Notes: a model not told the origin generated them from the letters alone. 64,000 bases of DNA from Candidatus Aldehydirespirator sp. (GCA_965221215.1 OZ244872.1:3030340-3094339); one strand, 5' to 3'; shown: positions 23,446 through 60,638, counted from the stretch's first letter. Program-made: numbers and translations.

Positions 23446-23590
23446 GCGCAAATTTGGTGAGAGCCGGTCGCGTCGCAGCGGGGTCATTCCCGCTCTTGTT
23501 CGCTGTGCTCACGGGCCGCTCGGGCCACGGCCTCGCGGCGCGCGCTGCGGGAACCCCAAGGGGGACGGGTCTAGTCGCTCGGCCTCTAGG
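23446..23590 (-). repeat. Dispersed repeat family DR, copy A (full length, ~145 bp)
   Basis: Read in the element's own orientation: cctagaggccgagcg...gaggccgtggcccgagcggcccgtgagcacagcgaacaagagcgggaatgaccccgctgcgacgcgaccggctc...tttgcgc. It contains the hairpin AGCGGG-aatgac-CCCGCT. Confidence 0.85.
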
Positions 23591-23680
23591 TCAGCGGGCC
23601 AGGAAGAAGAGTTGCAGCACCCCGGCCACCACGATGATGGCGAGCAGCGCCACAATGGCGATGGTGGTTCCCGGTCTCAT
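23591..23680 (-). CDS. Candidate 29-aa single-TM micropeptide (MRPGTTIAIVALLAIIVVAGVLQLFFLAR)
   Basis: It falls below the ORF-track cutoff. Its ATG forms an ATGA overlap with the stop of the upstream DUF62 gene (23677..23680). The sequence is a uniformly hydrophobic helix flanked by Arg. Confidence 0.4.
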   Translation of the reverse strand: MRPGTTIAIVALLAIIVVAGVLQLFFLAR

Positions 23681-24693
23681 GGCTGGCCTCCTTGGTCGGC
23701 TCGGCCTCCGTGCTCCTGCGGCTCGGGTCGGGGGCTGAGCCCGACCGGTGTCACCACCGGGCTGCTCGTGGGACGGTCGTCGGCCGCTGCGGCACCGAGG
23801 CGCACCTCGGCGCCCTCGTGCAGCCCGAGTTCGTCGGCCGCGGACCGGCGGGGCAGGGCCAGCGACACCAGCCCGCTGGAGTCGGTGACGAGGCCGATTC
23901 GGCCCGCCGGCACGTCGGCATAGGCCCGAACCCGCTCAGCGGTGCGAAGGTCTTCGCCGACCGCCACCTGCAGTGATCCGCCAGCGGCGGCCTGCAGCGA
24001 TCCGCTGGCGGCGACCAGTTCGTCCACTTCGGCCGGGTCGACGTTGAGCTGACAGTTGCCGAAGCGGTCCACCCACAGCACCTCGGCCACCAGGTCGTCG
24101 CCGTCGCGCCGGCTCACCGGCAGCATGCCGGGGGTGAGGCCGGCCGGGTCGATGGCCGGACCCAGAGCATCCAGCGGCACCCCGCAGCAGAGATGAGCGG
24201 CGGCAGGGGCGAACACGTCGCGGCCGTCGAACGTTGCCCCCACCTCGGCCCCGGAGTCGAGGCGGTACTCGGCGGCGGCCAACTCCACGGCACGGCTGGC
24301 CCCGCCCACGAGGGCCACCGCCGGGGCCAACAGCCCGTTGTCGGGTCCGACCAGCACCGAAGCGCCGCCGCCGACCTCCACCGCCACCGGCCGCCGGTCG
24401 GTACCCACTCCCGGATCTACCACCGCCAGGACCACGCCCGGCAGCAGATACTGGGCCGCCCGGGCCAAGGCCAGCCCCCCGGCCCGCACATCGCAGGCAG
24501 CGATGCCATGGGTCACGTCCACCACCCGAGCCTGGGGGGCAATGGCCGCAATCACCGAATGGACCACCCCAACAAACTCGTCGTTAAGGCCATAGTCCGA
24601 CAGAAACGAGATGGTCTCGTAACCACCCCCCGCAGAGCCGCCCGGAGTCACTGGCCCCTGATCGCCTGCGCAGGTCGCCGGGACCGACGTCAC
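23677..24693 (-). CDS. SAM hydrolase / SAM-dependent halogenase family protein (DUF62)
   Basis: ISFLSDYGLNDEFVGVVHSVI, VVDPGVGTDRRPVAV and GPDNGLL motifs. The GTG start overlaps the proC stop. Confidence 0.75.
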   Translation of the reverse strand: MTSVPATCAGDQGPVTPGGSAGGGYETISFLSDYGLNDEFVGVVHSVIAAIAPQARVVDVTHGIAACDVRAGGLALARAAQYLLPGVVLAVVDPGVGTDRRPVAVEVGGGASVLVGPDNGLLAPAVALVGGASRAVELAAAEYRLDSGAEVGATFDGRDVFAPAAAHLCCGVPLDALGPAIDPAGLTPGMLPVSRRDGDDLVAEVLWVDRFGNCQLNVDPAEVDELVAASGSLQAAAGGSLQVAVGEDLRTAERVRAYADVPAGRIGLVTDSSGLVSLALPRRSAADELGLHEGAEVRLGAAAADDRPTSSPVVTPVGLSPRPEPQEHGGRADQGGQP

Positions 24694-25487
24694 TGGCCCA
24701 GCTCGTGGGAGCGGCGGGTGGCTGCGGCGACCGTCCGATCGACGAGATCCATGAGGTCGGCCTCGTCGAGCACGGCCAATCCGGCTGCGGTGGTGCCGCC
24801 GGGGGAGGTGACGTTCTCGCGCAGGCGGCCTGGATCCTCTCCCGACTCGACCAGCAGGGTGGCCGCCCCGAGCAGGGTCTGGCGCACCAGCCCGTCGGCT
24901 ACCGCCGGGTCGAGACCCTGGGCGACGCCTGCGGCCCGCAGCGCCTCAGCCAGTCGGAACACGTAGGCGGGACCGCTGCCCGACAGGCCGGTCACCGCGT
25001 CGAGGTCGGCCTCGTCCACCACCGCCACCGTCCCCACCGCCTCGAGGATGCTTCGGGCCCATGCCAGGTCGTCGCCCCCGGCCGCCGACCCGCCCGCGAT
25101 GGCGGCTGCGCCCACCCCAACCAGCGCGGGCGTATTGGGCATGGCCCGCACCACCGGAGTCTTCGCCGGCAACCCGGCCTCGATGGCCCCAGTGCGCACC
25201 CCCGCCGCGATCGAAAGCACCCGGGGCGCGGCAGCCGCCGCCAGGGCGGGCAGCACCGCGGCCACCACATCGGGCTTCACCGCGATTACCGCGTCGATCC
25301 CAAGGACCGGTTCGTCCGCGACCGACACGCCGCTGACGGTGTTGGCCAAGGCCGTCCGCCGGGCCGGGTCGGGCTCCACCACATGAAGCTCGCCGGCCGC
25401 AGCCCAGCCGCTCGACACCAGTCCCCCCAGCAGGGCCTCGCCCATTTTGCCGCCGCCGATCACCTGCAACCGGGCCATGAGCGCCAT
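24690..25487 (-). CDS. proC: Pyrroline-5-carboxylate reductase
   Basis: IGGGKMGEAL, RAMPNTPALVG, SGSGPAYVF, VTSPGGTT. The start is uncertain (25487 or 25478). Confidence 0.9.
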   Translation of the reverse strand: MALMARLQVIGGGKMGEALLGGLVSSGWAAAGELHVVEPDPARRTALANTVSGVSVADEPVLGIDAVIAVKPDVVAAVLPALAAAAAPRVLSIAAGVRTGAIEAGLPAKTPVVRAMPNTPALVGVGAAAIAGGSAAGGDDLAWARSILEAVGTVAVVDEADLDAVTGLSGSGPAYVFRLAEALRAAGVAQGLDPAVADGLVRQTLLGAATLLVESGEDPGRLRENVTSPGGTTAAGLAVLDEADLMDLVDRTVAAATRRSHELGQ

Positions 25488-25489
25488 GC

Positions 25490-25520
25490 TAAAGGGCTGA
25501 GCGAGTAGGCGAGACGCACG
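25490..25520 (+). repeat. DR family, copy G (short left-end fragment, weak)
   Basis: taaagggctgagcgagtaggcgagacgcacg, compared with the DR left end gaggccgagcgggtaggcgagcgattcc. Confidence 0.4.
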
Positions 25521-25660
25521 TCCTTGCTGAGCCACTGTCATAGGGCTGTACAAACATCCGTATAGCAGCGCCTTCGGAGTCGAGGGAGTGTGCAAGTCCG
25601 GAGAGCCGAAGGTCAACGGCGTTGGAGCCGTTCACGGCGTCCCCTCTCGGGAGTCAGAGA

Positions 25661-27325
25661 ATGCAATACTCCACCCAGATGACACTGACCGAAGTCGAGG
25701 CGTCGTTCCAGGCCCCACAGTCTGGGGATCTTGGCGACGAGCGATCCCTCGCCGCAGCCGCTTGGGCGATGGCCAAGCACGGTGCCCTGGCCACGCTCTC
25801 CCAACCCGAGTCGAGTCTGCTTGCAGTGTCAGGGCTCGTGGAGCGGCCGTCCAGGGTCGCCGGGTTGGCCGAGTTGGTTCGCGGGGGAGATGACCCTTTG
25901 GGAGAGGCTTTCGCGCGCGTGCGCCCGGCTCCGCAGCGGCGACTGCTCGGAGCGACCTACACGCCTCCTGAGATCGTGTCTGCAATGGTGGCGTGGATCG
26001 CCGCACACCATCGCCCCTCTCGTGTCGTCGACCCGGGGACCGGTTCAGCCCGGTTCTTGTTGGCGGCAGGCCGTGCCTTTCCGGACGCGGCGTTGGTGGG
26101 GGTTGAGATCGACCCGCTAGCGGCTCTCATCGCGCGAGCGAATTTGACCGCCGCCGGTCTTGACCACCGGTCGCGCATCGTCGTGGCCGACTACCGGACC
26201 GCCGACATCGGCGATTGCGGTGGCTCGACCGCCTTTGTGGGCAATCCGCCCTACGTCCGGCACCATCAGATCGGACCTGAGGGCAAGCAGTGGCTCGCCG
26301 ACGGAGCGGCGCGCCTTGGCTTGAGAGCGAACGGCCTCGCAGGTCTGCACGCACATTTTCTGGTGGCCACCGCTCTGCGTGTCCGCCGGGGCGATGTGGG
26401 ATCGTTCGTGACTTCAGCGGAGTGGCTCGACGTGAACTACGGGCAGCTGCTGCGAGAGTTGATAGCGAAACAACTCGGCGGGGTGTCGATCCACCTGGTC
26501 GCCCCCGAGGCAAACCCCTTCAGCGACGCTGCCACGACCGCGGCTGTGACCTGCTTCGAAGTCGGGACCTCGAGGTCCTCGATCCGCCTCAAGCGCGTCC
26601 CAGACACAGTCGGATTGAGAGCCCTCGACGACGGAGTGCGGCTTAGCCGCAAACGGCTCTGCAAGGAACCCCGCTGGACTCCCCTGCTCGACGGCACTCC
26701 GAAGCCTCCCGACGGCTACGTCGAGCTCGGCGAGCTGTGTCGAGTGCATCGCGGCGCGGTGACCGGCGCGAACAAGACCTGGATCACCGACCCCTCCAAT
26801 CCTGCGCTCCCCCCGGCCGTGCTGTTCCCCGCCATCACCCGTGCCCGCGAGCTGTTCGATGCGCCCAACGGAGTGCTGGGCACCGCACGCAATCTCCAGG
26901 CAGTTATCGACCTGCCCGCGGACCTCGACCTGCTCGACAAGGCCGACAGAGCCCGCATCGAGAGCTTCTTGCGGGCGGCGCGGCGCGGAGGCATCCAAAC
27001 CGGATACGTCGCCCGGCACCGCAACCCGTGGTGGCGGGTGCGGCTCAAGGAGCCAGCGCCGATCCTCGCGACCTACATGGCTCGACGCCCGCCGGCCTTC
27101 GTGCGCAACACAGCCGCGGTGCGCCATGTGAACGTGGCGCACGGCATCTACCCGCGCGAGGACATGTCCACGTCCACGCTGGATGCGCTCGCGTCTGCAT
27201 TGCGCGCTGCGGCACCCGCCGCGGTTGGGCGCACATACGCAGGCGGGCTCGTCAAGTTCGAGCCCTCGGAGATGGCGCGCATCTACGTGCCGGACCCTGA
27301 GACGCTCGAAGCAATGGCAGCGTGA
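25661..27325 (+). CDS. N6-adenine DNA methyltransferase (gamma class, Eco57I-like methylase domain)
   Basis: TYTPPEIV, motif I VVDPGTGSARFLL, motif IV FVGNPPYV. GGGAG lies 8 nt upstream of ATG 25661; the listed TTG at 25622 is less likely. Confidence 0.8.
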   Translation: MQYSTQMTLTEVEASFQAPQSGDLGDERSLAAAAWAMAKHGALATLSQPESSLLAVSGLVERPSRVAGLAELVRGGDDPLGEAFARVRPAPQRRLLGATYTPPEIVSAMVAWIAAHHRPSRVVDPGTGSARFLLAAGRAFPDAALVGVEIDPLAALIARANLTAAGLDHRSRIVVADYRTADIGDCGGSTAFVGNPPYVRHHQIGPEGKQWLADGAARLGLRANGLAGLHAHFLVATALRVRRGDVGSFVTSAEWLDVNYGQLLRELIAKQLGGVSIHLVAPEANPFSDAATTAAVTCFEVGTSRSSIRLKRVPDTVGLRALDDGVRLSRKRLCKEPRWTPLLDGTPKPPDGYVELGELCRVHRGAVTGANKTWITDPSNPALPPAVLFPAITRARELFDAPNGVLGTARNLQAVIDLPADLDLLDKADRARIESFLRAARRGGIQTGYVARHRNPWWRVRLKEPAPILATYMARRPPAFVRNTAAVRHVNVAHGIYPREDMSTSTLDALASALRAAAPAAVGRTYAGGLVKFEPSEMARIYVPDPETLEAMAA

Positions 27326-28242
27326 ACCGGCCAGAACCACCGCGTTGGAGTCTGAACGAGTTCCAGCGGGACCTAGACCGTGCGGTCGAGATCTTCCGGG
27401 CTCGCAGACTCAGGGAGCCCGTCGAGCAATACCGCGAAGACTTCGACCGTGCAGTAGGCCGCATCAAGGACCTCATGGCCAAGACCGGCAACCTTGCCGA
27501 GGCGCCGACTGGCGAGTCGCCTGAGGCACTGGAACTCTTGACAGACCCGGAGATGCGAGCCGCCCTGCGGTACCTTGCCGGCCCGCCAATCTCCGAGGAC
27601 GACCTGAAGACCCTGGCGGACATCCCATCTCTCGCGCCGAGCCGGCTGGCCAGCGACGCTACGGCGGCAACGCGGATCATGGAAGTGATTCACGAGAGTC
27701 TCGACACGAGGCGCTTCCCGTGGATGCAAGATCGGAGTTCGCCCGGCGAGAAGGAGATGTACGCCGCGGTGGTGGCGTCTGCGAGCCTCATGGCCGCGCA
27801 GCGCGTGCAGACATTCCGCCGACACGCGGACAAGGGCTACCAGGAAGGGCGCATCCAGCGATATCTGCGCCTGATTGGACTCAAGCAGGTGAACCCGCGG
27901 CCGATCCCCACGATTCGCGAAGCTCCCAATCCCGGCGAGTTCTGCGGCGAGTGCCAGCTAGGCCAAAGGAAGGCCGACATCGTGATCGGCCTCGCAGACG
28001 GTCGCATCATGCCGGTTGAGTGCAAGGTCTCCAACTCAGCGCTCAATTCGGTCAAGCGCCTCAACAACGATGCGGCCGCAAAGGCAGACCAGTGGATCGT
28101 CGCCTTCGGCAAGGACCAAGTCGTGCCCAGCGCCCTGCTCGCCGGAGTCTTCAAGCTCCACAACCTGGAGGCCGCACAGAAAGCCGGGCTAACGATCTTC
28201 TGGTCGCACAGGCTCAAGCCGCTCGGACAGTTCGTCCACTGA
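27322..28242 (+). CDS. Type II restriction endonuclease, XamI-like (PD-(D/E)XK)
   Basis: Translationally coupled to the methylase (the GTG overlaps the TGA). Candidate catalytic core KADIVIGLADGRIMPVECKVSNSALNSVKRLNN (D...ExK). The XamI-family call is from memory of the family signature and has not been searched. Confidence 0.6.
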   Translation: MNRPEPPRWSLNEFQRDLDRAVEIFRARRLREPVEQYREDFDRAVGRIKDLMAKTGNLAEAPTGESPEALELLTDPEMRAALRYLAGPPISEDDLKTLADIPSLAPSRLASDATAATRIMEVIHESLDTRRFPWMQDRSSPGEKEMYAAVVASASLMAAQRVQTFRRHADKGYQEGRIQRYLRLIGLKQVNPRPIPTIREAPNPGEFCGECQLGQRKADIVIGLADGRIMPVECKVSNSALNSVKRLNNDAAAKADQWIVAFGKDQVVPSALLAGVFKLHNLEAAQKAGLTIFWSHRLKPLGQFVH

Positions 28243-28272
28243 CGGGCCTCGCACCCGCTCGTGCTTGCTCTT

Positions 28273-28406
28273 GGAGGCCGAGCGGGTAGGCGAGCGATTC
28301 CGGCCCATACGGGTGAGGCCGTGGCTATGGGCGACCCGTGAGCGCAGCGAACAAGAGCGGGAATGACCCCGCTGCGACGCGACCGGCTCGCACCTATTTT
28401 GCGCGC
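28273..28406 (+). repeat. DR family, copy B (full length)
   Basis: ggaggccgagcgggtaggcgagcgattccggcccatacgggtgaggccgtggctatgggcgacccgtgagcgcagcgaacaagagcgggaatgaccccgctgcgacgcgaccggctcgcacctattttgcgcgc. Confidence 0.9.
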
Positions 28407-28420
28407 CCCATAACGGAGTT

Positions 28421-29311: not shown

Positions 29312-29346
29312 AGGAGGTACCCTCGCCCGCTCGGGCCGGTGCTCGG

Positions 29347-29437
29347 GCTCTTGTTCGCTGCGCTCACGGGCCGCTCGGGCCGCGGCAGGGCCTCGCCCGC
29401 GTGAACCGGATTCGCTCGCCTATCCGCTCAGCTCGGC
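29347..29437 (-). repeat. DR family, copy C (left two-thirds, inverted relative to copy B)
   Basis: The reverse complement reads gagccgagctgagcggataggcgagcgaatccggttcacgcgggcgaggccctgccgcggcccgagcggcccgtgagcgcagcgaacaagagc. It abuts the stop of the GmaS-like gene. Confidence 0.8.
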
Positions 29438-30805
29438 TCAGAACAGGGTCAGGTACTGGTCGACCTCGCCTGCGGTGACCACATGGTGGTGGGCCAGGAA
29501 CTCGTCGCGCTTCACCTTCACGTAGTAGTCGCGGTAGGGGCCCTCGGCCGTGTCGCCCAGCCCGGCGCCGATCACATCGTTGGCAGCGAGCCGGTCGGCG
29601 GCGTGCAGCAGCGTGGGCGGCAGGGTCTCGATGCCCTTGGCCGCCACCTGCTCGGCCGACAGCGTGAACAGGTTGTCGGTGTTGGGCTCGCCCGGATCGA
29701 GGCCGCGGTCGAGTCCGTCGAGTCCGCAGGCCAGCATGGCCGCGAACATCAGGTACGGGTTGGCCGCGCCGTCGCCGAGGCGGACCTCGATGCGGTCCGG
29801 CTCGGGCACCCGGATCATCTGGGTGCGGTTGTTGCCGCCGTAGGCCGCGTAGGCCGGCGCCCAGGTGGCCCCCGAGGTGGGCGCGCCCACCCCCATGCGC
29901 TTGTAGGAGTTGACGATGGGGCAGGCCACCGCCACCAGCGACGAGGCGTGCTCGAGGAGGCCGCCCACGAACTTGTAGGCGGTGTCGCTGAGGCCCAGCC
30001 CCTGGGTGTCTTCGCCGCCGGGACCGCCGCCGATGAACAGCGGCTCGTCGGCGTCGCCCGACCACAGGCTGAGATGGACGTGCAGGCCGTTGCCGGTCTT
30101 GTCGGCGAACGGCTTGGGCATGAACGTGGCGTAGCGGCCGTCGCGCTGGGCCAGGGTGTGGACCATCAGCCGGAACAGGATCAGCCGGTCGGCGGTGGTG
30201 AGCGCGTCGGAGTACTGCCAGTTCTGCTCGTACTGGCCGTTGGCGTCCTCGTGGTCGTTGGCGTAATTGCCCCAGCCCATAGCGTCGAGGTTCTTGGACA
30301 CCGCGGTGAGGTGGGGCAGCATCCTGGTGAGGCCCTTGGCGTCGTAGCAGGGCAGCGCCATGGTGTCGCGGTCGTCGGCCACCGAGATGGCGCCGTCGTC
30401 GTTGCGCACCACCAGCGAGTACTCGGCCTCGACGCCGCACTTGAGCACCAGGTTGCGCTCGGCGGCGGCATCGAGGGCCCGGCGCAGGATCACCCTCGGC
30501 GCGTAGGGCCAGAGCTCGCCCTCCACGGTGGGGTCGCACTGCATGGCGGCCACGTTGGGCTGCCACGGAAGCTGCGTGTACGACGCCGGGTCGGGCAGGG
30601 CGAGGATGTCGGGGCTGGACGGGTCCTGGCCCATGGGGCCGGCCGCGAACCCGGCGAACCCGGCCCCGTCGCTCATCAGCGCCTCGAGGGCGCCGACGGG
30701 CACCAGCTTGGCGCACGGCTTGCCGTGCATCTCCACGAACATGGCGTAGATGAACTCCACGCCGTCGGCCTCCACCCGGCCCCGGATCTCATCGAGCGCG
30801 CTCAT
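29438..30805 (-). CDS. Glutamine synthetase family protein, candidate gamma-glutamylmethylamide synthetase (GmaS-like)
   Basis: 455 aa counted from ATG 30805, with GGGGGAA upstream. It has the GS beta-grasp and catalytic domains (KCGVEAEYSLV, GNGLHVHLSLW, NRTQMIRVP) and lies divergent from the three glutamate-synthase-like subunit genes. Confidence 0.7.
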   Translation of the reverse strand: MSALDEIRGRVEADGVEFIYAMFVEMHGKPCAKLVPVGALEALMSDGAGFAGFAAGPMGQDPSSPDILALPDPASYTQLPWQPNVAAMQCDPTVEGELWPYAPRVILRRALDAAAERNLVLKCGVEAEYSLVVRNDDGAISVADDRDTMALPCYDAKGLTRMLPHLTAVSKNLDAMGWGNYANDHEDANGQYEQNWQYSDALTTADRLILFRLMVHTLAQRDGRYATFMPKPFADKTGNGLHVHLSLWSGDADEPLFIGGGPGGEDTQGLGLSDTAYKFVGGLLEHASSLVAVACPIVNSYKRMGVGAPTSGATWAPAYAAYGGNNRTQMIRVPEPDRIEVRLGDGAANPYLMFAAMLACGLDGLDRGLDPGEPNTDNLFTLSAEQVAAKGIETLPPTLLHAADRLAANDVIGAGLGDTAEGPYRDYYVKVKRDEFLAHHHVVTAGEVDQYLTLF

Positions 30806-30957
30806 GGTTCCCCCTGTGTCTCGGCTGGGTCGCGGCAGCCGAGAGTAGTCAAGCATCCCCACCCATGGGAATCGAGCCGGTCTGCGGTCGGTGGTGCGCC
30901 GGGCGCTACGGTGCGGGCCGAACTTCGCCGGACAGGGGGTTTCGGGGGACAAGCGGC

Positions 30958-31857
30958 ATGTGCGGCATCGTTGGACTGTTCTGCAAGACCGAGACCCACC
31001 GCCACGAACTGGGCCGGCTGACCGCGGTGATGCTGCGGGAGATGCGCGACCGCGGCCCCGACAGCGCCGGCTTCGCGTCGTATGACCCCGGTGAGCCCGG
31101 CCGCACCCGCATCACCGTGCTGGCCGAGGGCGTCGAGGTGGACTGGGGCGCGGTGGCGGCTGCGCTGGAGGACGTGCTGGACGCGGCGTTGACGGTGCGG
31201 GCGGTGCACGACCACGCCGTGCTCTCCACTGACGGCGACGGCCGGGCCGCCCGCCAATGGATCATCGACAACGTGGTCGGGGCGACGGTGCTGAGCTACG
31301 GCGTCCAGATCGAGCTGTACAAGGCGGTGGGCGATCCCGACCTGGTGGCCGAGCGCTACGACCTAGCCTCCCGCACCGGCACCCACGCCCTGGCCCACAC
31401 CCGCATGGCCACCGAGTCGGCCGTCACCACCCGGGGATCGCATCCGTTCGCCACCGGCGCCGACACCTGTCTGGTGCACAACGGGTCGCTGTCCAACCAC
31501 AATCGGCTGCGGCGCCACCTGGAGGGCCACGGCGAGTCGTTCCAAACCGAGAACGACTCCGAGGTGGCCGCCGGGTACCTGTCGTGGCGGATCCGCTCCG
31601 GCGACTCCATCTCGCAGGCGCTGGAGGGTGCGCTGAGCGACCTCGACGGGTTCTACACCTTCGCCATCGGGGTGGCCGACGGCTTCGCCATCCTGCGCGA
31701 TCCCATTGCCTGCAAGCCGGCTGTGGTGGCCGAGACCGACGACTGGGTGGCCATGTCGTCAGAGTACCGGGCCATCGCCCGACTGCCGGGCGCCGCCGAT
31801 GCCGAGGTGTGGGAGCCCGAGCCGGCCCGCATCTACACCTGGAGCCTGGCCGCATGA
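30958..31857 (+). CDS. Class II glutamine amidotransferase subunit (GlxB/MgsA-like)
   Basis: N-terminal nucleophile MCGIVG, HTRMATES, HNGSLSNH. Confidence 0.8.
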   Translation: MCGIVGLFCKTETHRHELGRLTAVMLREMRDRGPDSAGFASYDPGEPGRTRITVLAEGVEVDWGAVAAALEDVLDAALTVRAVHDHAVLSTDGDGRAARQWIIDNVVGATVLSYGVQIELYKAVGDPDLVAERYDLASRTGTHALAHTRMATESAVTTRGSHPFATGADTCLVHNGSLSNHNRLRRHLEGHGESFQTENDSEVAAGYLSWRIRSGDSISQALEGALSDLDGFYTFAIGVADGFAILRDPIACKPAVVAETDDWVAMSSEYRAIARLPGAADAEVWEPEPARIYTWSLAA

Positions 31858-32693
31858 GCGGCGTGCGGACCTTCGATCTGTCGGTCGTCACCCGACGCGA
31901 GCTCAACGGCGCCCTGCACGCCGCTGGCGACGACGAGCGCTTCGAGGTGCTCAATCCCCGGGGCGCCCATGCGGTGGCCTGCGGCATCACCACCGACATC
32001 GAGGTGGTGGTGCGGGGCTCGGTGGGTTACTACTGCGGGGGGATGCACCAGCGGGGCCGGGTGCTGGTCGAGGGCAACGCCAGCACCGGCCTGGCCGAGA
32101 ACATCATGTCGGGGACGGTGCGCATCACCGGCAACGCCACCATGTCGGCCGCGGCTACCGGCTGCGGCGGTCTGGTGGTGGTGGGCGGCAACGCCGGCGC
32201 CCGCTGCGGCATCTCCATGAAGGGCGTCGACATCGTGGTGGGCGGCGACGCGGGCCACATGAGCGCATTCATGGCTCAGGCCGGGAACCTGGTGGTGTGC
32301 GGCGACGCGGCCGCCGATCTGGGCGACTCGATCTACGAGGCCCGCATCTTCGTGCGGGGCGACGTGGAGTCGCTCGGAGCCGACTGCGTCGAGAAGGAGA
32401 TGCGCCCCGAGCACCTCCAGACGCTGGCCCGGCTGCTGGCCGCGGCCGCTCCCACCGTCGAGGGGGCCGACCCGGCCGAGTTTCGCCGCTACGGCTCGGC
32501 TCGCCGCCTCTACAACTTCACCATCGACGATGTGGACGCCCTAGCCCGAGCGGCCCGTGAGCGCAGCGAACATGAGCGGGAAAACACGGCCCGAGCGGCC
32601 CGTGAGCGCAGCGAACATGAGCGGGAATACCCGGCCCGAGCGGCCGGTGAGCGCAGCGAAGGTGAGCGGGAAATCCACGAGGCGGCCCGCTGA
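31854..32693 (+). CDS. GXGXG-motif subunit (glutamate synthase alpha C-terminal domain-like, GlxC/MgsB-like) with a repeat-encoded tail
   Basis: ATGA overlap with the upstream gene. Beta-helix repeats (GSVGYYCGGMHQRGRVLVEGNASTGLAENIMSGTVRITGNA...). The last 45+ aa are encoded by three 45-bp DR core units. Confidence 0.8.
   Translation: MSGVRTFDLSVVTRRELNGALHAAGDDERFEVLNPRGAHAVACGITTDIEVVVRGSVGYYCGGMHQRGRVLVEGNASTGLAENIMSGTVRITGNATMSAAATGCGGLVVVGGNAGARCGISMKGVDIVVGGDAGHMSAFMAQAGNLVVCGDAAADLGDSIYEARIFVRGDVESLGADCVEKEMRPEHLQTLARLLAAAAPTVEGADPAEFRRYGSARRLYNFTIDDVDALARAARERSEHERENTARAARERSEHEREYPARAAGERSEGEREIHEAAR
32544..32678 (+). repeat. DR family, copy D: three tandem 45-bp core units inside a CDS
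   Basis: gcccgagcggcccgtgagcgcagcgaacatgagcgggaa... starts at 32544, 32589 and 32634. Each unit translates to ARAARERSEHERENT or a close variant. Confidence 0.9.
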
Positions 32694-34039
32694 TGGCCGA
32701 GCAGTCCGACGGCGGAACCTCCGGCCCCGACTTCTGGCATCTGCGGGAGTCGTACACCTTCGACCGCAACGTGATTGCCGAGATCCGCCGGGCCGCCAAC
32801 ACCGGCATCTACCGGATCCGGGGCTGGGGGGCCAAGCGCCGCCTGCCCACCCTCGACGACCTGGTGTTTTTGGGGGCGTCGATGTCGCGCTATCCGCTGG
32901 AGGGCTACCGGGAGGCCTGCGGCACCGACGTGGTGATCGGCGAGGACCGGGCCGAGCGGCCGGTGCACCTGAAGATCCCGGTCACCATCGCGGGGATGAG
33001 CTTCGGCTCGCTGTCGGCTCAGGCCAAAGAGGCGCTGGGGCGGGGCGCGTCGGCGGCGGGCACGTCCACCACCACCGGCGACGGCGGGATGACCGACGAG
33101 GAGCGCCAGCACTCGGCGACGCTGGTGTACCAGTATCTGCCGTCGCGCTACGGCATGAACCCCGACCATCTGCGGGCCGCCGACGCCATCGAGGTGGTGG
33201 TGGGCCAGGGAGCCAAGCCCGGCGGCGGCGGAATGCTGCTGGGCCAGAAGATCACCGAGCGGGTGGCCGAGATGCGCACCCTGCCCGAGGGGATCGATCA
33301 GCGCTCGGCCTGCCGCCATCCCGACTGGACCGGTCCCGACGATCTGGAGATCAAGATCGGCGAGCTGCGAGAGATCACCGACTGGCAGATTCCGGTCTAT
33401 GTGAAGGTGGGCGCGGCCCGCCCCTACTACGACACTGCGCTGGCGGTGAAGGCCGGCGCCGACGCGGTGGTGGTGGACGGCATGCAGGGCGGCACAGCCG
33501 CCACTCAGGACGTGTTCATCGAGCATGTCGGCATCCCCACGGTGGCCGCTATCGGCGAGTCGGTGCGGGCCCTGCGCGAGCTCGGGGTGCATCGCCGCGA
33601 GGTGAAGCTCATCGTGGCAGGCGGCATCCGCTCGGGCGCCGACGTGGCCAAGGCGCTGGCGCTGGGGGCCGACGCGGCCTCGATCGGCACCGCCGCGCTG
33701 ATCGCCATCGGCGACAACGACCCGGCCCACGAGTCCGAGTACCGGGCGCTGGGCGCCTCGGCCGGATTCTGGGAGGACTTCCAGGCCGGCAACGACCCGG
33801 CCGGGATCACCACCCAGGATCCCGAGCTGTCGGCCCGCCTCGACCCGGTGCTGGCCGGCCGCCGCCTGACCAACTACCTCCAGGTGCTCACCATCGAGAC
33901 CCAGATACTGGCCCGAGCCAACGGCAAGTCCCACGTCTTGAACCTGGAGCCCGAAGACCTGGCCGCGCTCACGGTGGAGGCCGCAGCCATGGCCAAAGTC
34001 CCCCTAGCAGGCACCAACTGGACCCCCGGCACCCCCTAA
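32693..34039 (+). CDS. FMN-dependent glutamate-synthase-domain subunit (GlxD/MgsC-like)
   Basis: Its start overlaps the upstream TGA. TIM-barrel GltS FMN-domain motifs are present (ISAMSFGSL-type IAGMSFGSLS, GQGAKPGGGG, VVVDGMQGGTAA, IVAGGIRSGADV). Confidence 0.8.
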   Translation: MAEQSDGGTSGPDFWHLRESYTFDRNVIAEIRRAANTGIYRIRGWGAKRRLPTLDDLVFLGASMSRYPLEGYREACGTDVVIGEDRAERPVHLKIPVTIAGMSFGSLSAQAKEALGRGASAAGTSTTTGDGGMTDEERQHSATLVYQYLPSRYGMNPDHLRAADAIEVVVGQGAKPGGGGMLLGQKITERVAEMRTLPEGIDQRSACRHPDWTGPDDLEIKIGELREITDWQIPVYVKVGAARPYYDTALAVKAGADAVVVDGMQGGTAATQDVFIEHVGIPTVAAIGESVRALRELGVHRREVKLIVAGGIRSGADVAKALALGADAASIGTAALIAIGDNDPAHESEYRALGASAGFWEDFQAGNDPAGITTQDPELSARLDPVLAGRRLTNYLQVLTIETQILARANGKSHVLNLEPEDLAALTVEAAAMAKVPLAGTNWTPGTP

Positions 34040-34102
34040 TCCCCGCAAACCCAGCCGAAAACGCCCACCGCCACAGTTCGATGTGCAGTTCGGATCCCTT
34101 CC

Positions 34103-35395: not shown

Positions 35396-35451
35396 AGCAG
35401 CCTGTCCTCGTCCTACGACAGGCCAACGCGGAGTGTTCCGTGAACCCGTCA

Positions 35452-35566
35452 AAGTGCGTTCTGGGAATGCTACGCAGTGCACTTTGGGAATGAAACGCAG
35501 TGCACGTTGGGAATGCTACACAGTGCACTTTGGGAATGAAGCGCAGCGCGTTTTGGGAATGTAGCG
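35452..35566. repeat. Five exact-period 23-bp tandem repeats (consensus CAGTGCACTTTGGGAATGMWACG)
   Basis: Units start at 35452, 35475, 35498, 35521 and 35544. Each contains a GTGCAC-like palindrome and TTGGGAATG. The array lies 57 bp upstream of the ATPase-2 start and 95 bp upstream of the DMGDH-like gene. Confidence 0.9.
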
Positions 35567-35660
35567 TGGGGTTTGCTGGCGGTGGGTTGGGGACTGGCGT
35601 AGATTGGCTCCGACTTGGGGCCGGACGGGCCGGACCTGCGAATCGACGGATGGGAGTTCA

Positions 35661-42117: not shown

Positions 42118-42154
42118 AGTTGACCCTCGTCTCGCATACAAGGGGGAGCGTGCC

Positions 42155-42352
42155 ATGAGAGTTCGCGTCGATCAGGAGGCCTGCCAGGGTCACAACCGCT
42201 GCTACATGCTGGCGCCGGAGCTGTTCGATGTGGACGACGAGGGAACCGCCTTCGAGATCGGCGACGGCGAGGTGGCCCCCGAGCTTGAGGAGAAGGCCCG
42301 CCTGGCCTTCGACAACTGCCCCGAGTACGCAGTCGAGCTAATCGAAGACTGA
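42155..42352 (+). CDS. Small ferredoxin (single-cluster, CxxHxxC...CP type)
   Basis: 65 aa: VDQEACQGHNRCYMLAPELF...NCPEYAV. Confidence 0.8.
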   Translation: MRVRVDQEACQGHNRCYMLAPELFDVDDEGTAFEIGDGEVAPELEEKARLAFDNCPEYAVELIED

Positions 42353-42458
42353 ACCCACAGAGATCCCGCGGAGTTCCGCACTAGCCGTCGGCGGTGGGCC
42401 GGGTTAGGGTCGGCGTTCCCATGCGTGCGCAGGCCTACCAACGGGAGGGATAGTCAGC

Positions 42459-48270: not shown

Positions 48271-48281
48271 ACCGCCAAGGA

Positions 48282-48322
48282 TAAGAGGCCGGGCGAATAG
48301 GTGAGCGAACTCGGCCCGTAGC
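48282..48322 (+). repeat. DR family, copy F (left-end fragment)
   Basis: taagaggccgggcgaataggtgagcgaactcggcccgta, compared with gaggccgagcgggtaggcgagcgattccggcccata. Confidence 0.55.
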
Positions 48323-48461: not shown

Positions 48462-48472
48462 CTCCCCACATC

Positions 48473-51197: not shown

Positions 51198-53510
51198 GTG
51201 TCAGACGAGGGACTGACCGTGTTCAACGGTCGCTACGAACTGCTCCGGCGCATCGGACGGGGCGGAATGGCCGATGTCTATCTGGCCCGCGACGCGTCGC
51301 TCGACCGCCAGGTGGCGGTGAAGGTTCTGTTCCCCGAGTTCGCCAATGATCCCAGTTTCGTCGAGCGTTTCCGCCGGGAGGCCAAGGCCGCGGCCAACCT
51401 GAATCACCCCAACATCGTCGGTATCTACGACTGGGGCCAGGAGCAGGGCACCTACTACATAGTGATGGAGTACGTGGTGGGCCGCAACATGGCCGACGTG
51501 CTGCGCTCCACCGGCCGGCTCAGCCCCGACCGGGCCGCGGAGATCGCGTCGGACGTGGCCGAGGCGCTCAGCAGCGCCCACAACGCCGGCCTGGTGCACC
51601 GCGACATCAAGCTCGGCAACATCATCGTGAGCGACGACGGCCAGGTGAAGGTGGCCGACTTCGGCATAGCCACCGCGCTGGCCCGAAGGACCGGAGAAAA
51701 CCTCACCCATATCGGCTCGGTCATGGGCACGGCCACGTACTTCTCGCCCGAGCAGGCCCAGGACAAGGCTCTCGACGGCCGCAGCGACCTGTACTCGCTG
51801 GGGGTGGTGCTCTACGAGCTGATCGCGGGCCGACCCCCCTTCACCGCGGAGACTTCGACCGCGGTGGCGGTCAAGCATGTGCAGGAACGTCCGCTGCCGC
51901 CGTCGCTGCTGGGCGTGGGCATCGTGGAGTCGCTCGAGGCCATCATCTTGAAGCTGCTGGCCAAGAATCCGGCCAAGCGCTATCCCAAGGCCGACGATCT
52001 GCGCGCCGACCTCCAGCGCTACCTGGCCGGTGCGCACAGCATCGGCGCCCCTGCCCCCCGTGCCGGGACAGCCGAGCGGCCTGCCACACGATCGCCGGCT
52101 GCTCCGGGCGCGACTCCGGACCTTCGCCCGGGCTCGGTGGCGATGTCGGGGCCGCGTCCCGGACCGGCCGGCGCTTCAGACCCGCGCCCGGGCTCGGTGG
52201 CGATGTCGGGCCGGTCGCACACCGGTCCTGTAGCCGCACCGGGGCGGCCCCGCACCGGTCCGGTGGCGATGTCGGGGCGGCCCCCCACTGGCCCGGTGCC
52301 CGCCGCGCCGCGCCGCGGCGCCGGTCCCCCCACCGGTTCCACCGCCCAGGTGCCGGCCGCGCCCGGCTCGGGGCAAGGTCCTCCCCAGCAGTTCGTTCCG
52401 CCGGCCTACTACTACGAGGAGGTCCACCGCTCCGACGGCTGGAAGCGGGCCCTGCTGATGATGCTGGGCCTCGGCGCCCTGGTAGTGGTCCTGGTCTTGT
52501 TGGGAGTGACCTTCTATGAGTCGCTGGGCCTCGACGATGGCAACGGGACCGACGCGCCGGCCGCCTCCGAGGATGTTTCGCTGGTCGATGTGCCCGATGT
52601 GCTGGGGCTGAACTACGCCGACGCCGACGCCCAGCTGCGCTCGATCGGACTGGTGCCGGAGCCCAGCTACCAGGTCAACACCGGCCAGCCCGAGAACACG
52701 GTGATCGCCCAGAGTCCTCCGGCCGGGCAGCGGATCGACGAGGGCACCACGGTGGCGCTCACCGTGAGCCAGGGCGAGACCCCCACGGTGCCGCCGGTGC
52801 GGGGCCGCAACCGGGTCGATGCCACCGACATTCTTCGCAGCGCGGGCTACGAGGTGATCGTGATCGAGGGCGCCAGCCAGGCCGAGGCGGGCATTGTGGT
52901 GGGCCAGGAACCGTCGTCGAACACCGAGCTCGCGCCGGGCGAGGCGGTGACCATCACCGTCTCCACCGGGCCGGGCCAGATCTTCGTGCCCGACCTGCGG
53001 GGCCAGACCCTGAGCCAGGCCTTCCAGACCTTGATCGAACAGGGATTCCGGGTGGGGGAGCGGCGCGAACCCTCGACCACGGTGGAGGAGGGGCAGATCA
53101 TCGACACCGATCCGCCCCACGGATGGCCGGTGTCGAGCGGCTTGGAGGTGTTCGTCATCATCTCGGACGGTCCGCCGCTGGTGGCCATCCCCGACGTCCA
53201 GGGCCTGCTGTTCGACACCGGCAAGCTGGCCATCGAGCGAGCCGGTCTGCTCGTGGGCATCGTGACGTTCGAGCCGGTGGAGCCGGGATCGACCGACGTG
53301 GGCCGGATCCTGGCCCAGACGCCGCCGCCCAATCTCGAAGTGTCGGCCGAGACCCCGGTAGACGTGGTGGTGGGCGAGGTGTCGGAGACCGAGGGCGATC
53401 AAGTCGAGCCGCCCGAGGGCGAAGACACCGAGACCGGAGGCACCGACCAGACCGGCGCCGGCGAGACGGGCGCCGACCAGACCGAGGCCGACTCCGGCAA
53501 CTCTGGCTAG
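51198..53510 (+). CDS. pknB: Ser/Thr protein kinase with four extracellular PASTA domains
   Basis: GRGGMADVY, VAVK, HRDIKLGN, DFGIA, a Pro-rich linker, a TM segment and four PASTA repeats. GTG start. Confidence 0.85.
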   Translation: MSDEGLTVFNGRYELLRRIGRGGMADVYLARDASLDRQVAVKVLFPEFANDPSFVERFRREAKAAANLNHPNIVGIYDWGQEQGTYYIVMEYVVGRNMADVLRSTGRLSPDRAAEIASDVAEALSSAHNAGLVHRDIKLGNIIVSDDGQVKVADFGIATALARRTGENLTHIGSVMGTATYFSPEQAQDKALDGRSDLYSLGVVLYELIAGRPPFTAETSTAVAVKHVQERPLPPSLLGVGIVESLEAIILKLLAKNPAKRYPKADDLRADLQRYLAGAHSIGAPAPRAGTAERPATRSPAAPGATPDLRPGSVAMSGPRPGPAGASDPRPGSVAMSGRSHTGPVAAPGRPRTGPVAMSGRPPTGPVPAAPRRGAGPPTGSTAQVPAAPGSGQGPPQQFVPPAYYYEEVHRSDGWKRALLMMLGLGALVVVLVLLGVTFYESLGLDDGNGTDAPAASEDVSLVDVPDVLGLNYADADAQLRSIGLVPEPSYQVNTGQPENTVIAQSPPAGQRIDEGTTVALTVSQGETPTVPPVRGRNRVDATDILRSAGYEVIVIEGASQAEAGIVVGQEPSSNTELAPGEAVTITVSTGPGQIFVPDLRGQTLSQAFQTLIEQGFRVGERREPSTTVEEGQIIDTDPPHGWPVSSGLEVFVIISDGPPLVAIPDVQGLLFDTGKLAIERAGLLVGIVTFEPVEPGSTDVGRILAQTPPPNLEVSAETPVDVVVGEVSETEGDQVEPPEGEDTETGGTDQTGAGETGADQTEADSGNSG

Positions 53511-53538
53511 AGGCCGAGCTCGAAGGCGGGAGCGGCGC

Positions 53539-59487: not shown

Positions 59488-59537
59488 GGGCGGTCCTTCT
59501 CTTGGGCGGCCAGTGAGTCCGATGGTTTCTACACTCT

Positions 59538-59573
59538 GCAATTTGAAATCGCAAATATTTGATTTTAGATTGC
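59538..59573. promoter_or_regulatory. AT-rich imperfect inverted repeat (candidate operator) in a divergent promoter region
   Basis: GCAATTTGAAATC-n10-GATTTTAGATTGC, arms matching at 11 of 13 positions. It sits in the only AT-rich stretch between the LLM gene and the coxM-like gene. Confidence 0.4.
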
Positions 59574-59672
59574 TCCCATGGTTCACTGTTGGCTATCGGG
59601 CTGTGCGGCCCGCTGGCGCGTGTGCAACGCACCGCAGCGGTCGCCGGGTGAGGGAGGAGGGCAGCGCAGCGC

Positions 59673-60638
59673 ATGAAGCCGCCGAGATTTGCCTACCACG
59701 CCCCCAAGACGCTTCCGGAGGCGCTGGAGATCCTCGCCGAGACCGGTGACGAAGCTGTGGTGTTGGCGGGCGGGCAGAGCCTGTTGCCGATGCTCAACCT
59801 TCGCCTAGCCGCCCCCAGTGATGTGATCGATCTCGGCCGGGTTCCGGGCCTAGACCTGGTGGCCAGAGCAAACGGCGACGTCGAGGTGGGTGCGATGGTC
59901 ACTCACCGCCGCATGGAGACGGACCCGCTGGTAGCAGCGTGCATGCCGCTTGCGAAACACGCCGCGGGCTATGTCGGATATCGCGCCATCCGCAACCGAG
60001 GCACCATCGGCGGCAGCGTTGCACACGCTGACCCCGCAGCGGAATGGCCAATCGTTCTGCTGGCGCTCGACGGCGCTGTCTACCTCGTCTCCGTGCGTGG
60101 CCGGCGCAGCGTCGCGGCAGAGGACTTCTTCGAGTCGGTGTACACCACCGCCAAACGACCCGACGAGGTCGTCACGTCTTTGAGCTTCGGGTCGCGCTTC
60201 GCCCACAGTTGGGGGTTCTCGGAGTTCCAGCGTCGCGTCGGGGACTTCGCCACGGTCGCGGTGGCCGTCGCCTGCGTCATGGAGTCCGGCGAGGTTGCCG
60301 AGGCGCGCGTCGCCATCGCCGGCGTCGCGGACCGGCCGGTGCGGTGCCCCGAAGCTGAAGCCGCGCTGGTTGCCGGGTCACGCTCAGCAGCGAGCGACGC
60401 CGCCGCGGCGGCCTGCGACTCGATCGAACCGATCAGCGACATCCACGGATCGTCGTCGTTCCGCAAGAGGCTGGTCTACGCCGAGACCCAACGCGCAGCC
60501 GTTCAAGCCCTAAGAGGCCGAGCGAGCAGGCGCACCAATCAGCTGCATACGGGCGAGGCCGTGGCCCGAGCGGCCCGTAAGCGCAGCGAACAAGAGCGGG
60601 AGCCAAGGGCCAACGGCGCAGGTGCCGACGATGGCTGA
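59673..60638 (+). CDS. Molybdenum hydroxylase FAD-binding subunit (CoxM/XdhB-like) with a repeat-encoded C-terminal tail
   Basis: AGGQSLLPMLNLRL and RNRGTIGGS motifs. The last ~40 aa (LRGRASRRTNQLHTGEAVARAARKRSEQERE...) are encoded by DR copy E. Confidence 0.8.
   Translation: MKPPRFAYHAPKTLPEALEILAETGDEAVVLAGGQSLLPMLNLRLAAPSDVIDLGRVPGLDLVARANGDVEVGAMVTHRRMETDPLVAACMPLAKHAAGYVGYRAIRNRGTIGGSVAHADPAAEWPIVLLALDGAVYLVSVRGRRSVAAEDFFESVYTTAKRPDEVVTSLSFGSRFAHSWGFSEFQRRVGDFATVAVAVACVMESGEVAEARVAIAGVADRPVRCPEAEAALVAGSRSAASDAAAAACDSIEPISDIHGSSSFRKRLVYAETQRAAVQALRGRASRRTNQLHTGEAVARAARKRSEQEREPRANGAGADDG
60514..60603 (+). repeat. DR family, copy E (left end plus core, inside a CDS 3' end)
   Basis: gaggccgagcgagcaggcg...catacgggcgaggccgtggcccgagcggcccgtaagcgcagcgaacaagagcggga. 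Confidence 0.8.

Follow-up and report, generated by a model that had tools for sequence, protein, structure and literature searches.

The window analysed here, a stretch of 64,000 nucleotides from Candidatus Aldehydirespirator sp. with a G+C content of 69%, carries a family of short dispersed repeats between and within its genes. A search with the 26-nt core GTGAGCGCAGCGAACAAGAGCGGGAA, allowing up to three mismatches, finds seven matches, at 23487-23512 (-), 28338-28363 (+), 29342-29367 (-), 32557, 32602 and 32647 (+), and 60577-60602 (+), against an expectation from shuffled sequence of 0.00. These matches bear out the dispersed family of the original prediction, whose coordinates, four-part consensus and AGCGGG/CCCGCT hairpin were all found as claimed. 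The profile check that it proposed was also run: an nhmmer model trained on full-length relatives retrieves copies A to F, and with A to E the window holds five HMM sites per 64 kb. The copies and related features are the following.

Copy A, 23434-23591, minus strand: full-length element (nhmmer E=3e-32, model positions 4-150) with a left terminus, an atypical inner-left arm, the core (23487-23536) and a right arm; its neighbours are a small ORF with its TGA at 23591-23593 and, on the other side, a hemA-like gene (Pfam).
Copy G, 25490-25514, plus strand: weak left-terminus remnant TAAAGGGCTGAGCGAGTAGGCGAG (HMM match at 25491-25514 with an E-value of only 1.8) in the divergent spacer between proC and a methylase gene.
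Copy B, 28269-28413, plus strand: full-length element of the short type (nhmmer E=1e-32, model positions 4-147; alignment A2), starting 30 nt past the stop of a XamI-type restriction endonuclease gene that is convergent with an EamA transporter gene (Pfam).
Copy C, 29347-29437, minus strand: left arm and core without the right arm (nhmmer 29347-29432, E=6e-18, model positions 12-93), its left end adjoining the TGA stop (29438-29440) of a glutamine-synthetase-like gene (Pfam); beyond it, a partial second core start reaches to about 29316.
Copy D, 32544-32678, plus strand: three tandem 45-nt cores (nhmmer units 32538-32677; direct repeats spaced 45 and 45).
Empty target site, 44502-44504, plus strand: TGA stop of an EF-G-like gene, filled at the orthologous place in locus L012.
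Copy F, 48281-48322, plus strand: solo left arm without a core (nhmmer 48281-48320, E=5e-4, model positions 5-44) between divergent tRNA-Ser(tga) and tRNA-Leu(cag) genes.
Terminal remnant, 53508-53521, plus strand: TAGAGGCCGAGC, an exact match to AGAGGCCGAGC that the original prediction did not list.
Copy E, 60511-60605, plus strand: left arm and core (nhmmer 60510-60605, E=3e-23).

Copies D and E are not intergenic: each falls within the 3' end of an open reading frame. Translation, a GC3 frame plot and Pfam place copy D in frame within the 3' end of a GXGXG (mgsB-like) ORF (31851-32693), where it encodes ARAARERSEHERENT three times, and the TGA of this ORF overlaps the ATG of the next gene as TGATG at 32691-32695. 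The coxM-like ORF at 59673-60638 reads through copy E (frame plot, translation) and thereby gains a C-terminal extension of about 43 residues that ends in RGRASRRTNQLHTGEAVARAARKRSEQEREPRANGAGADDG; its Pfam domains stop at residue 275 of 321, and its stop overlaps the coxS-like start in ATGGCTGA at 60631-60638. The claim that every copy sits at a gene junction is thus only partly right, because D and E extend the translated frames of the mgsB-like and coxM-like genes. As for the stop triplets said to precede several copies, copy C does abut a TGA; for D and E, the preceding triplets (TAG and TAA, respectively) are not in frame with the upstream genes and so do not serve as their stops. It is plausible that copy G is a weak left-terminus remnant, as it contains the exact motif of the terminal repeat, GAGCGRRTAGGYGAG, whose expected number of matches in the window is 0.1. 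In the remnant at 53508, the TAG is the stop codon of a PASTA Ser/Thr kinase gene (51198-53510; Pfam), and this remnant is so short that it may be a chance match.

A genome scan extends the family to at least 116 loci in at least 44 species-level genomes, all of them Acidimicrobiia MAGs; most of the loci listed belong to Ca. Aldehydirespirator and Ca. Poriferisodalis, and among these 116 loci the family occurs only in Acidimicrobiia. Across the 116 loci and the window (0.96 Mb), 204 HMM matches resolve into 167 sites. The repeats are true copies of an undescribed element, probably a miniature transposable one, and its hosts are sponge-associated Acidimicrobiia.

Full copies measure 142-155 bp and encode no transposase, for which the element is too small; the frames open in them give only short low-complexity peptides without domains. 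The left terminus, GAGGCCGAGCGG(A/G)TAGGCGAG, is followed by a variable inner-left arm (absent, about 31 nt or about 42 nt) and the near-invariant core GCGAGGCCGTGGCCCGAGCGGCCCGTGAGCGCAGCGAACAAGAGCGGGA. Beyond the core lie a right arm, which is variable as well and includes a small hairpin, and a right terminus that repeats the left one imperfectly and in inverted form; the terminal inverted repeats, imperfect as they are, read GAGGCCGAGCGGATAGGCGAG. Across an alignment of 42 short-type copies, 68% of cells are paired between columns 4-25 and columns 125-146, compared with 37-46% for slid partners, and two terminal positions co-vary (GC/AU counts 17/11 and 10/23). The right terminus splits into subfamilies, and its overall conservation is poor (pairwise identity of about 61%). 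About half of the sites fall short of full length: left arm, core and right arm are present at 81 sites, left arm and core at 45, core and right arm at 18, and the core alone at 20. Core arrays of 2-6 units occupy 20 sites; their period is either 42-48 nt or 26-27 nt (ten arrays at 44 nt, four at 43 nt and two at 46 nt). Once inserted, copies decay by the loss of arms and by slippage that expands the core in the manner of a minisatellite.

The flanks of the element are marked by T-N-A triplets, found on the right of 26 and on the left of 18 of the 42 copies. Both flanks carry such a triplet in 13 copies, with identical triplets in 8 of the 13. The two flanks differ in most copies, and when all copies are pooled, identical flanks (8/42, with about 4.3 expected; p=0.06) make target duplication statistically weak. 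Comparison with related genomes, another check that had been proposed, found both filled and empty orthologous sites. Locus L079 reads TAA-element-TAA where the orthologous site in L112 has a single stop codon; L012 carries a full-length element as TAA-element-TGA where the window has a single TGA; and L020 is filled where L011 is empty. The filled and empty sites show duplication of the stop codon. In 51 of 150 cases, the gene that reads into the element has its stop codon between -6 and +8 nt from the element's edge.

We consider it probable, at roughly three in four, that the window repeats are copies and decay products of a lineage-specific non-autonomous element (MITE) of Acidimicrobiia sponge associates. 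The inverted termini, the T-N-A flanks, the many copies, the lack of coding capacity and the filled and empty orthologous sites uphold the MITE-like reading first offered for these repeats. Such a MITE would be moved in trans by a putative transposase encoded elsewhere, possibly IS5-like, which may cut and paste the element into T-N-A triplets and duplicate them; an IS5-family enzyme of the type that makes 3-bp duplications is a candidate mobiliser. In a genome of 69% G+C, T-N-A triplets are probably mostly stop codons, so the copies would come to abut or replace stop codons and pile up at gene ends. Within the 0.96 Mb around known copies, we found no inverted terminus pair at IS-like spacing, no ORF with a DDE motif and no transposase motif in the loci; the single terminus pair at 1162 bp, formed by copies B and C, encloses the EamA transporter gene. 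No autonomous element with matching termini turned up within this 0.96 Mb, so we infer the transposase and its family. Other features also count against the MITE reading, as does the weak target duplication among the pooled copies. About half of the sites are incomplete. The right terminus is poorly conserved and the most conserved part of the element is internal, the opposite of a typical MITE. In tandem gene contexts, the orientation of the element relative to transcription is biased (64 sense, 24 antisense; p=2e-5 with orthologous duplicates removed), a bias not expected of plain selfish transposition into a target that looks palindromic.

Conservation within the element is strikingly uneven. 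Across genomes, identity is about 97% for the core of about 50 nt and for the 12-nt left terminus, whereas the arms differ by about 20-40%. Pairwise identity is 0.97-0.98 for the core, within and between genomes alike, and 0.59-0.76 for the arms. Between nearest neighbours from different genomes, the arms differ at 20.8% of positions and the core columns outside the scan pattern at 4.2%. One orthologous insertion shared by three species keeps the core while its inner-left arm is unalignable, and past left termini one sees either a core that is at least 80% intact or none at all, intermediates being few. Constraint on the core and left terminus far exceeds that on the arms, and we infer that they serve either as cis sequences for mobilisation or as a functional module at the level of the host. 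As a tentative and less likely proposal, the core and the 12-nt left terminus, which repeats the core's GAGGCC...GAGCGG motif, might be a cis-acting DNA or RNA payload and more than a transposon relic. It would be bound by a host- or element-encoded factor, MITE-spread to the ends of hundreds of genes in Acidimicrobiia that live in sponges, and maintained there by purifying selection; it could also enter proteins as an in-frame, copy-number-variable tail or loop.

The window copies fold no better than shuffles (z from -1.0 to +1.9), and 40 full copies fold barely better (mean z of -1.1 on one strand and -0.9 on the other). RNAalifold returned no structure with covariation support, and Rfam gave no match for the window copies at the gathering threshold or for four copy-rich loci at E<=1. 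The AGCGGG/CCCGCT hairpin is paired in 74% of cells and is followed on the sense strand by GCGACG; in a terminator consensus scan of 22-34 kb, none of the copies yielded a call on the sense strand. A weak CUUGUUCGCU tail follows the hairpin on the antisense strand, and one site, the reverse of copy C, was called terminator-like. The element belongs neither to the REP hairpins nor to a known RNA family, and it is no intrinsic terminator of the sense strand. The other identities first suggested for these repeats (REP, mobile terminator and small-RNA module) are not supported: single copies fold like shuffles, the 40 full copies have a mean z of about -1 on both strands, RNAalifold shows no structure backed by covariation, Rfam has no match, and no U tract comes after the sense-strand hairpin.

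We regard it as unlikely that the element as a whole, or its invariant core if nothing more, is chiefly a cis-acting functional module that spread and was then retained by selection, as opposed to a purely selfish MITE. Such a module would work at the level of the transcript or of the DNA, for example by binding a protein or RNA, by signalling 3'-end or intercistronic processing or stabilisation, or by terminating transcripts that come in from the antisense side. It would fit the contrast between core and arms in divergence (4.2% and 20.8%) and identity, the core kept in three species, its all-or-none presence past left termini, the 64:24 sense bias and the antisense-strand hairpin with its CUUGUUCGCU tail, terminator-like in the reverse of copy C. 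The hairpin is also intact in 22 of 45 cases when a gene reads into the right end and in 20 of 68 otherwise, but this difference is small and uncorrected for multiple looks. A cis requirement of transposition, or gene conversion among copies, would equally give the conservation, however, and the fold z of about -1 is the same on both strands, as for a DNA inverted repeat. A spacer-length test for polarity avoidance was negative, and the absence of a covariation-supported structure, of an Rfam family and of a U tract on the sense strand weighs against such a module as well.

The in-frame copies raise a second alternative, that of a MIRU-like or peptide-coding minisatellite whose role lies in the charged peptide ARAARERSEQERE or in translational coupling within operons, the inverted termini being incidental. 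In this respect D and E are not isolated: the whole element is read through in nine cases, at least seven of which end on the next ATG (ATGA or TGATG), as D and E do. The orthologue of copy D in L051 has one in-frame unit where the window has three, and it keeps the TGATG; copy number at the mgsB site thus shifts by 45-nt steps with the frame preserved. The sense-biased orientation also favours such a role. Read-through that ends on the start of the next gene nevertheless concerns a minority of copies. Of 96 sense cases, 77 have an upstream gene that ends at the element's edge or ahead of it, so that the element is untranslated. Most genomic copies lie outside ORFs. The core is read in two frames, as ARAARERSEQERE (f1) and as PERPVSAANKSG (f2), array periods are mostly not multiples of three, and synonymous positions are conserved too. 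A search of 5.8 billion proteins gave only 30 matches, nearly all of them domainless short ORFs. We therefore consider a peptide or coupling role very improbable. Insertions within genes are rare (2 of 167 sites): in L097, a 168-nt in-frame insertion splits a 462-bit Hydantoinase_B match into two stretches, and in L070 an element lies in frame in the XdhC interdomain linker, between XdhC_CoxI and XdhC_C. Returning to the MITE, copies between translationally coupled genes or inside genes occur as variants that keep an open frame, a pattern for which selection may be the cause; the outcome is either a C-terminal extension that runs in frame onto the next start codon, seen here in D and E, or an insertion inside the gene that keeps the frame.

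Also very improbable is an element of the REP/REPIN type, in which short palindromic units move as single-stranded hairpins by means of a RAYT (Y1, IS200-like) transposase. The repeats are GC-rich, mostly extragenic and present in many copies, and their two inverted terminal units carry a GTAG/ATAG motif similar to the GTAG in REPs of enterobacteria. Neither terminal unit is a palindromic hairpin in itself, however, folding is weak, and T-N-A on both sides with a duplicated triplet at filled sites is not what RAYT-type movement yields. Chance similarity among GC-rich, low-complexity sequences, with nothing in its favour beyond the 69% G+C of the window, is already refuted by seven core matches where shuffles give none, HMM E-values down to 1e-32 and a 49-nt core that is near-identical in at least 44 genomes.

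In the IS1031 group of IS5-family elements, recognition of a three-nucleotide insertion site is described as common (PMC2516522), and the Acidimicrobiia element shares the three-nucleotide target. The IS5 family also has members in Actinobacteria. The termini of the element start with GAG, presumably as do IS1031-group ends in ISfinder. Since the 0.96 Mb around known copies yielded neither a transposase gene nor a full-length IS bearing these termini, the IS5 family should be seen as a candidate mobiliser rather than a proven relative.

The small repeats known as RPE, or Rickettsia palindromic elements (Ogata et al. 2000, as cited in the review PMC3184786), lie in frame inside protein-coding genes. 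The Acidimicrobiia element is similar in its in-frame insertion into otherwise intact genes (Hydantoinase_B in L097, the XdhC linker in L070), but only 2 of 167 sites are intragenic here and most copies lie at stop codons or between genes. We know of no homology between the two.

MIRU (mycobacterial interspersed repetitive units; Supply et al. 1997), in the summary given by the same review, are units of 40-100 bp that are often tandem and lie within operons (PMC3184786). Shared with them are the occurrence in Actinobacteria, units of 40-100 bp in variable tandem number, the operon location with unit ORF ends that overlap flanking stop and start codons (D and E), units oriented with the genes (64 sense, 24 antisense here), and imperfect inverted ends with signs of insertion. 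MIRU occupy about 40-50 loci per genome and have tetranucleotide direct repeats, unlike the Acidimicrobiia element, which has 142-155-bp full forms and T-N-A flanks and seems much denser (five sites in 64 kb). The Acidimicrobiia core may resemble a MIRU; a text search for a MIRU string gave no match.

BOX of Streptococcus pneumoniae (boxA - boxB(n) - boxC), compared here by build, is likewise modular, with end modules that are partly inverse-complementary and a central module of about 45 nt in zero to several tandem copies (0-6 in the Acidimicrobiia element), and it too is thought to be moved in trans. It belongs to another phylum, however, and in the Acidimicrobiia element it is the central module that is conserved, with amplification of 26-27-nt sub-units as well. 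BOX RNA structures are stable, whereas those of the Acidimicrobiia element are no different from shuffles.

Close parallels exist with bacterial MITEs, whose traits and ORF fusions are reviewed together with BOX and MIRU (PMC3184786) and which include Correia in Neisseria, RUP in pneumococcus and Nezha in cyanobacteria (PMC3184786). Unlike these, the Acidimicrobiia element is most conserved only in its internal 50-nt core and left terminus, while its right terminus and both arms vary and form subfamilies; it is weak at folding into a long hairpin, about half of its sites are partial, and no partner IS was found in the 0.96 Mb around its copies. Like bacterial MITEs, it is about 150 bp long and lacks a transposase gene, has terminal inverted repeats and short flanking target triplets, occurs in many dispersed copies at gene ends with filled and empty orthologous sites, and at times has its frame fused to the 3' end of a host gene.

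The dispersed repeat family in the window is real, as the original prediction had it. In this stretch of 69% G+C, a 26-nt core (GTGAGCGCAGCGAACAAGAGCGGGAA) occurs at seven places with at most three mismatches, and dinucleotide-preserving shuffles returned none. Repeat detection independently linked the five copies A to E, and the modular pattern first described for the family is visible in a multiple alignment of the copies. With a search profile made from full-length relatives of the element, the copies scored as follows.

Copy A, full: E~1e-32
Copy B, full: E~1e-32
Copy E, left arm and core: E=3e-23
Copy C, left arm and core: E=6e-18
Copy D, three units: 1e-11 to 8e-7
Copy F, left arm only: E=5e-4

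Copy G is weak by profile (E=1.8); it does hold an exact copy of the terminal motif GAGCGRRTAGGYGAG, against a chance expectation of 0.1. An additional short remnant (TAGAGGCCGAGC), absent from the original list, sits on a stop codon at 53508.

A full copy of the element measures 142-155 bp. Its left terminus reads GAGGCCGAGCGG(A/G)TAGGCGAG; from there, an inner-left arm of three size classes leads to the core, GCGAGGCCGTGGCCCGAGCGGCCCGTGAGCGCAGCGAACAAGAGCGGGA, and a variable right arm and a right terminus follow on its 3' side. The right terminus, when reverse-complemented, resembles the left one, and across 42 aligned short-type copies 68% of cells are paired between the ends, versus 37-46% with slid partners; two positions co-vary between the paired ends of these copies. 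As read from the alignment, the right terminus has several variants that are common to different genomes. Within 0.96 Mb, the profile gave 204 hits at 167 sites, including these forms.

Left arm, core, and right arm: 81 sites
Left arm and core: 45 sites
Core and right arm: 18 sites
Core only: 20 sites

The element is short, non-coding, and multi-copy, with inverted termini, and the partial forms are its decay products. Apart from a known partner IS, it has everything that the working definition of a MITE names, in agreement with the MITE-like reading suggested at the outset.

Species-representative genomes were scanned once for a degenerate 22-nt pattern of the core, which matched at least 116 loci from at least 44 genomes. 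Complete chromosomes with the family include OZ244832.1, OZ244866.1, OZ242033.1, and OY759762.1. Every locus among the matches listed belongs to an Acidimicrobiia MAG, and the taxa among them are Ca. Aldehydirespirator, Ca. Aldehydirespiratoraceae, Ca. Poriferisodalis, and sponge-derived Acidimicrobiaceae bins. The closest of the matches listed are two Ca. Aldehydirespirator loci, which share 87-92% identity with the window over syntenic genes, indicating that the window comes from a related species. Aldehydirespirator is mentioned in one paper, on the comparative genomics of sponge-associated Actinobacteriota. An exact-protein search with one gene of the window gave no match. No similar sequence was found in plasmids or in viral contigs, the element has no Rfam match, and its core sequence is absent from the text of the papers searched. 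To our knowledge, the element family has not been described.

The flanks of full copies carry the triplet T-N-A, a candidate target site, at 26 of 42 right ends and 18 of 42 left ends. Both flanks are T-N-A in 13 copies and identical in 8 of these 13; over all copies, identical flanks number 8 of 42 versus ≈4.3 expected (p=0.06). Comparisons of orthologous places give clearer evidence of mobility than the pooled flanks. At one locus (L079), the element lies between a stop-codon TAA and a second TAA, and the orthologous place in L112 has a single stop codon with the same spacer after it. At another (L012), the order is TAA, element, TGA, and the window has only the single TGA stop of an EF-G-like gene (44502-44504). 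A third place is filled in L020 and empty in L011. Such filled and empty orthologous pairs are insertion differences between related genomes. The stop codon of a gene reading into the element falls within -6 to +8 nt of the element edge in 51 of 150 cases. Head-to-tail full-length elements with one common T-N-A triplet between them occur at L050 4299-4580, L114 1830-2150, and L094 2323-2500, which suggests insertion beside, or into the ends of, existing copies.

We propose that a transposase acting in trans would move the element and duplicate 3 bp, and that the element would land on stop codons because GC-rich DNA probably has these as its most frequent T-N-A triplets. A three-nucleotide insertion site is described as common in the IS1031 group, which belongs to the IS5 family (PMC2516522), and an enzyme of this kind is a candidate for the mobilizing enzyme. 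In the 0.96 Mb around the copies, we found no inverted terminus pair at IS size, and a regular expression for the DDE motif returned nothing. Copies B and C are not the two ends of an IS, since the intervening 1162 bp encodes an EamA transporter and no transposase.

Where copies lie in coding contexts, they show an open-frame pattern. Copy D places three 45-nt units in frame at the 3' end of a GXGXG (mgsB-like) gene whose stop overlaps the next ATG; its orthologue in L051 has one unit, also in frame, with an identical stop/start overlap. Copy E is read through by a coxM-like gene, giving a tail of ≈43 residues that ends on the coxS-like start, and the predicted element-encoded tails on MgsB and CoxM are ...ARAARERSEQERE-type peptides. 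Across all loci, read-through of the whole element ends in ATGA or TGATG in at least seven of nine cases. Open-frame variants at such coupled gene junctions may have been retained by selection. Fusions of the element to proteins are the exception; they include an in-frame copy within an otherwise intact Hydantoinase_B gene (L097) and a copy in the linker of an XdhC protein (L070). A peptide-coding domain was considered and rejected: element translations searched against 5.8 billion proteins gave 30 hits, nearly all of them domainless short ORFs.

The family also forms core arrays, with two to six tandem units per site at 20 sites and periods of 42-48 nt or 26-27 nt; a multiple-of-three constraint on these periods does not hold in general. 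The extreme arrays are six 44-nt cores at L090 4937-5200, five 27-nt sub-units at L049 ~7100-7250, and three 21-nt plus three 27-nt sub-units at L020 4493-4733. Between co-directional genes, 65 copies lie sense and 26 antisense relative to transcription (64 versus 24 after merging orthologous sites, p=2e-5). The idea that antisense copies are shunned as polar in operons was rejected: a comparison of spacer lengths between sense and antisense copies gave no sign that the latter avoid tight operon junctions, and the hairpin is commoner in antisense copies.

This AGCGGG/CCCGCT hairpin, noted in the original prediction, exists in 74% of cells and has an invariant 5' arm. On the antisense strand, it is followed by CUUGUUCGCU, and one such site was called terminator-like; the hairpin is somewhat oftener intact where a gene reads into the antisense-entry side, a weak signal. 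The mobile terminator first envisaged fails on the sense strand, where the hairpin is followed by GCGACG with no U tract and a terminator scan of 22-34 kb called no site in any copy. A REP hairpin or stable RNA was rejected on three lines of evidence: neither strand of the window copies shows better folding than its shuffles, the mean fold z of 40 full copies against dinucleotide shuffles is -1.1 sense and -0.9 antisense, and RNAalifold gave no structure backed by compensatory changes. Values near -1 on both strands are as expected from an imperfect DNA inverted repeat. A left-arm hairpin of GGCCGAGC with GCGAGGCC was rejected as well, two-sided compensatory changes being absent; in one subfamily, tandem G-A mismatches of its stem are replaced by C-G pairs.

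Of the element's features, only the strongly constrained internal core goes unexplained by ordinary MITE biology. Pairwise identity is 0.97-0.98 in the core and 0.92-0.97 in the left terminus, versus 0.69-0.76 in the inner-left arm and ≈0.6-0.7 in the right arm and right terminus, and the core/arm pattern is alike within and between genomes. In nearest-neighbor comparisons across genomes, divergence is 20.8% of sites for the arms and 4.2% for the core, the latter figure covering only core columns outside the scan pattern. One insertion common to three species has kept its core while its inner-left arm is unalignable and its flanks are 93-95% identical. On the 3' side of a left terminus, either 80% or more of the core is intact or the core is missing. 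A cis requirement for movement, homogenization by gene conversion, or a host-level function could account for the constraint on the core and left terminus; with modest probability, the core would be more than a part of a MITE.

The window has several other features. A match to Rfam PYLIS_3 (the mttB pyrrolysine insertion sequence) lies at 41635-41734 (+) with 52 bits against a gathering score of 38, and another at L012 2091-2190. The window match falls inside the uninterrupted reading frame of an MttB-family gene (40612-42117; Pfam MTTB, 347 bits), which indicates a non-pyrrolysine MttB homologue and a match that reflects coding-sequence homology; tRNA-Pyl is absent among the four tRNAs of the window. 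The remaining features are as follows.

29438-44504: region resembling a methylated-amine and betaine catabolism island, with a glutamine-synthetase-like (gmaS-type) gene, a GATase/GXGXG/FMN glutamate-synthase-like trio (mgsABC-type), two paralogous DAO-GCV_T (dimethylglycine-oxidase-like) genes, MttB, and an EF-G paralogue
35430-35567: six tandem 23-nt units (AGTGCACTTTGGGAATGAAACGC) directly before the first DAO-GCV_T gene, whose start is at 35604; the units look like a putative operator or binding-site array unrelated to the element
6160-7063 and 34386-35286: segments 79-81% identical and ≈28.2 kb apart, likely paralogous regulator genes, the second adjoining the island
25490-28413: type II restriction-modification pair (N6_Mtase/Eco57I-like methylase, 25622-27325; XamI-type endonuclease, 27322-28242), bracketed by the weak remnant G upstream and full copy B downstream in equal orientation
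5152-5229 and 5791-5868: a 78-nt repeat pair with 88% identity and a spacing of 639 nt, containing TTGACA...TAGCGT and resembling a duplicated promoter region
1-4682: very large ORF, cut off by the left end of the window and at least 1553 aa long, containing long repeats (98% identity over 300 nt, period 831 nt; 112-158 nt, period 1158 nt) and 36-nt repeats at 4244-4411
52122-52313: 33-nt-period repeats, which probably code for a repetitive linker, inside a PASTA Ser/Thr kinase gene (51198-53510)

The element supplies a name and a model for a dense repeat in sponge-symbiont Acidimicrobiia genomes, which without a model confuses annotation through spurious short ORFs, artificial C-terminal tails, and broken assemblies. 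Should most T-N-A triplets of a GC-rich genome prove to be stop codons, the family would show clearly how a target preference can direct a transposon to stops. The outcomes observed are in-frame C-terminal extensions that keep the stop/start overlap, copy-number-variable peptide tails on the metabolic enzymes MgsB and CoxM, and rare in-frame enzyme insertions. Arrays and insertion differences could also mark strains of uncultivated symbionts. The core sequence may resemble that of MIRU; a text search of papers for a MIRU string found none. By the descriptions in PMC3184786, the element is similar in build to pneumococcal BOX, in its in-operon, in-frame tandem copies to mycobacterial MIRU, and in its rare intragenic copies to Rickettsia RPE.
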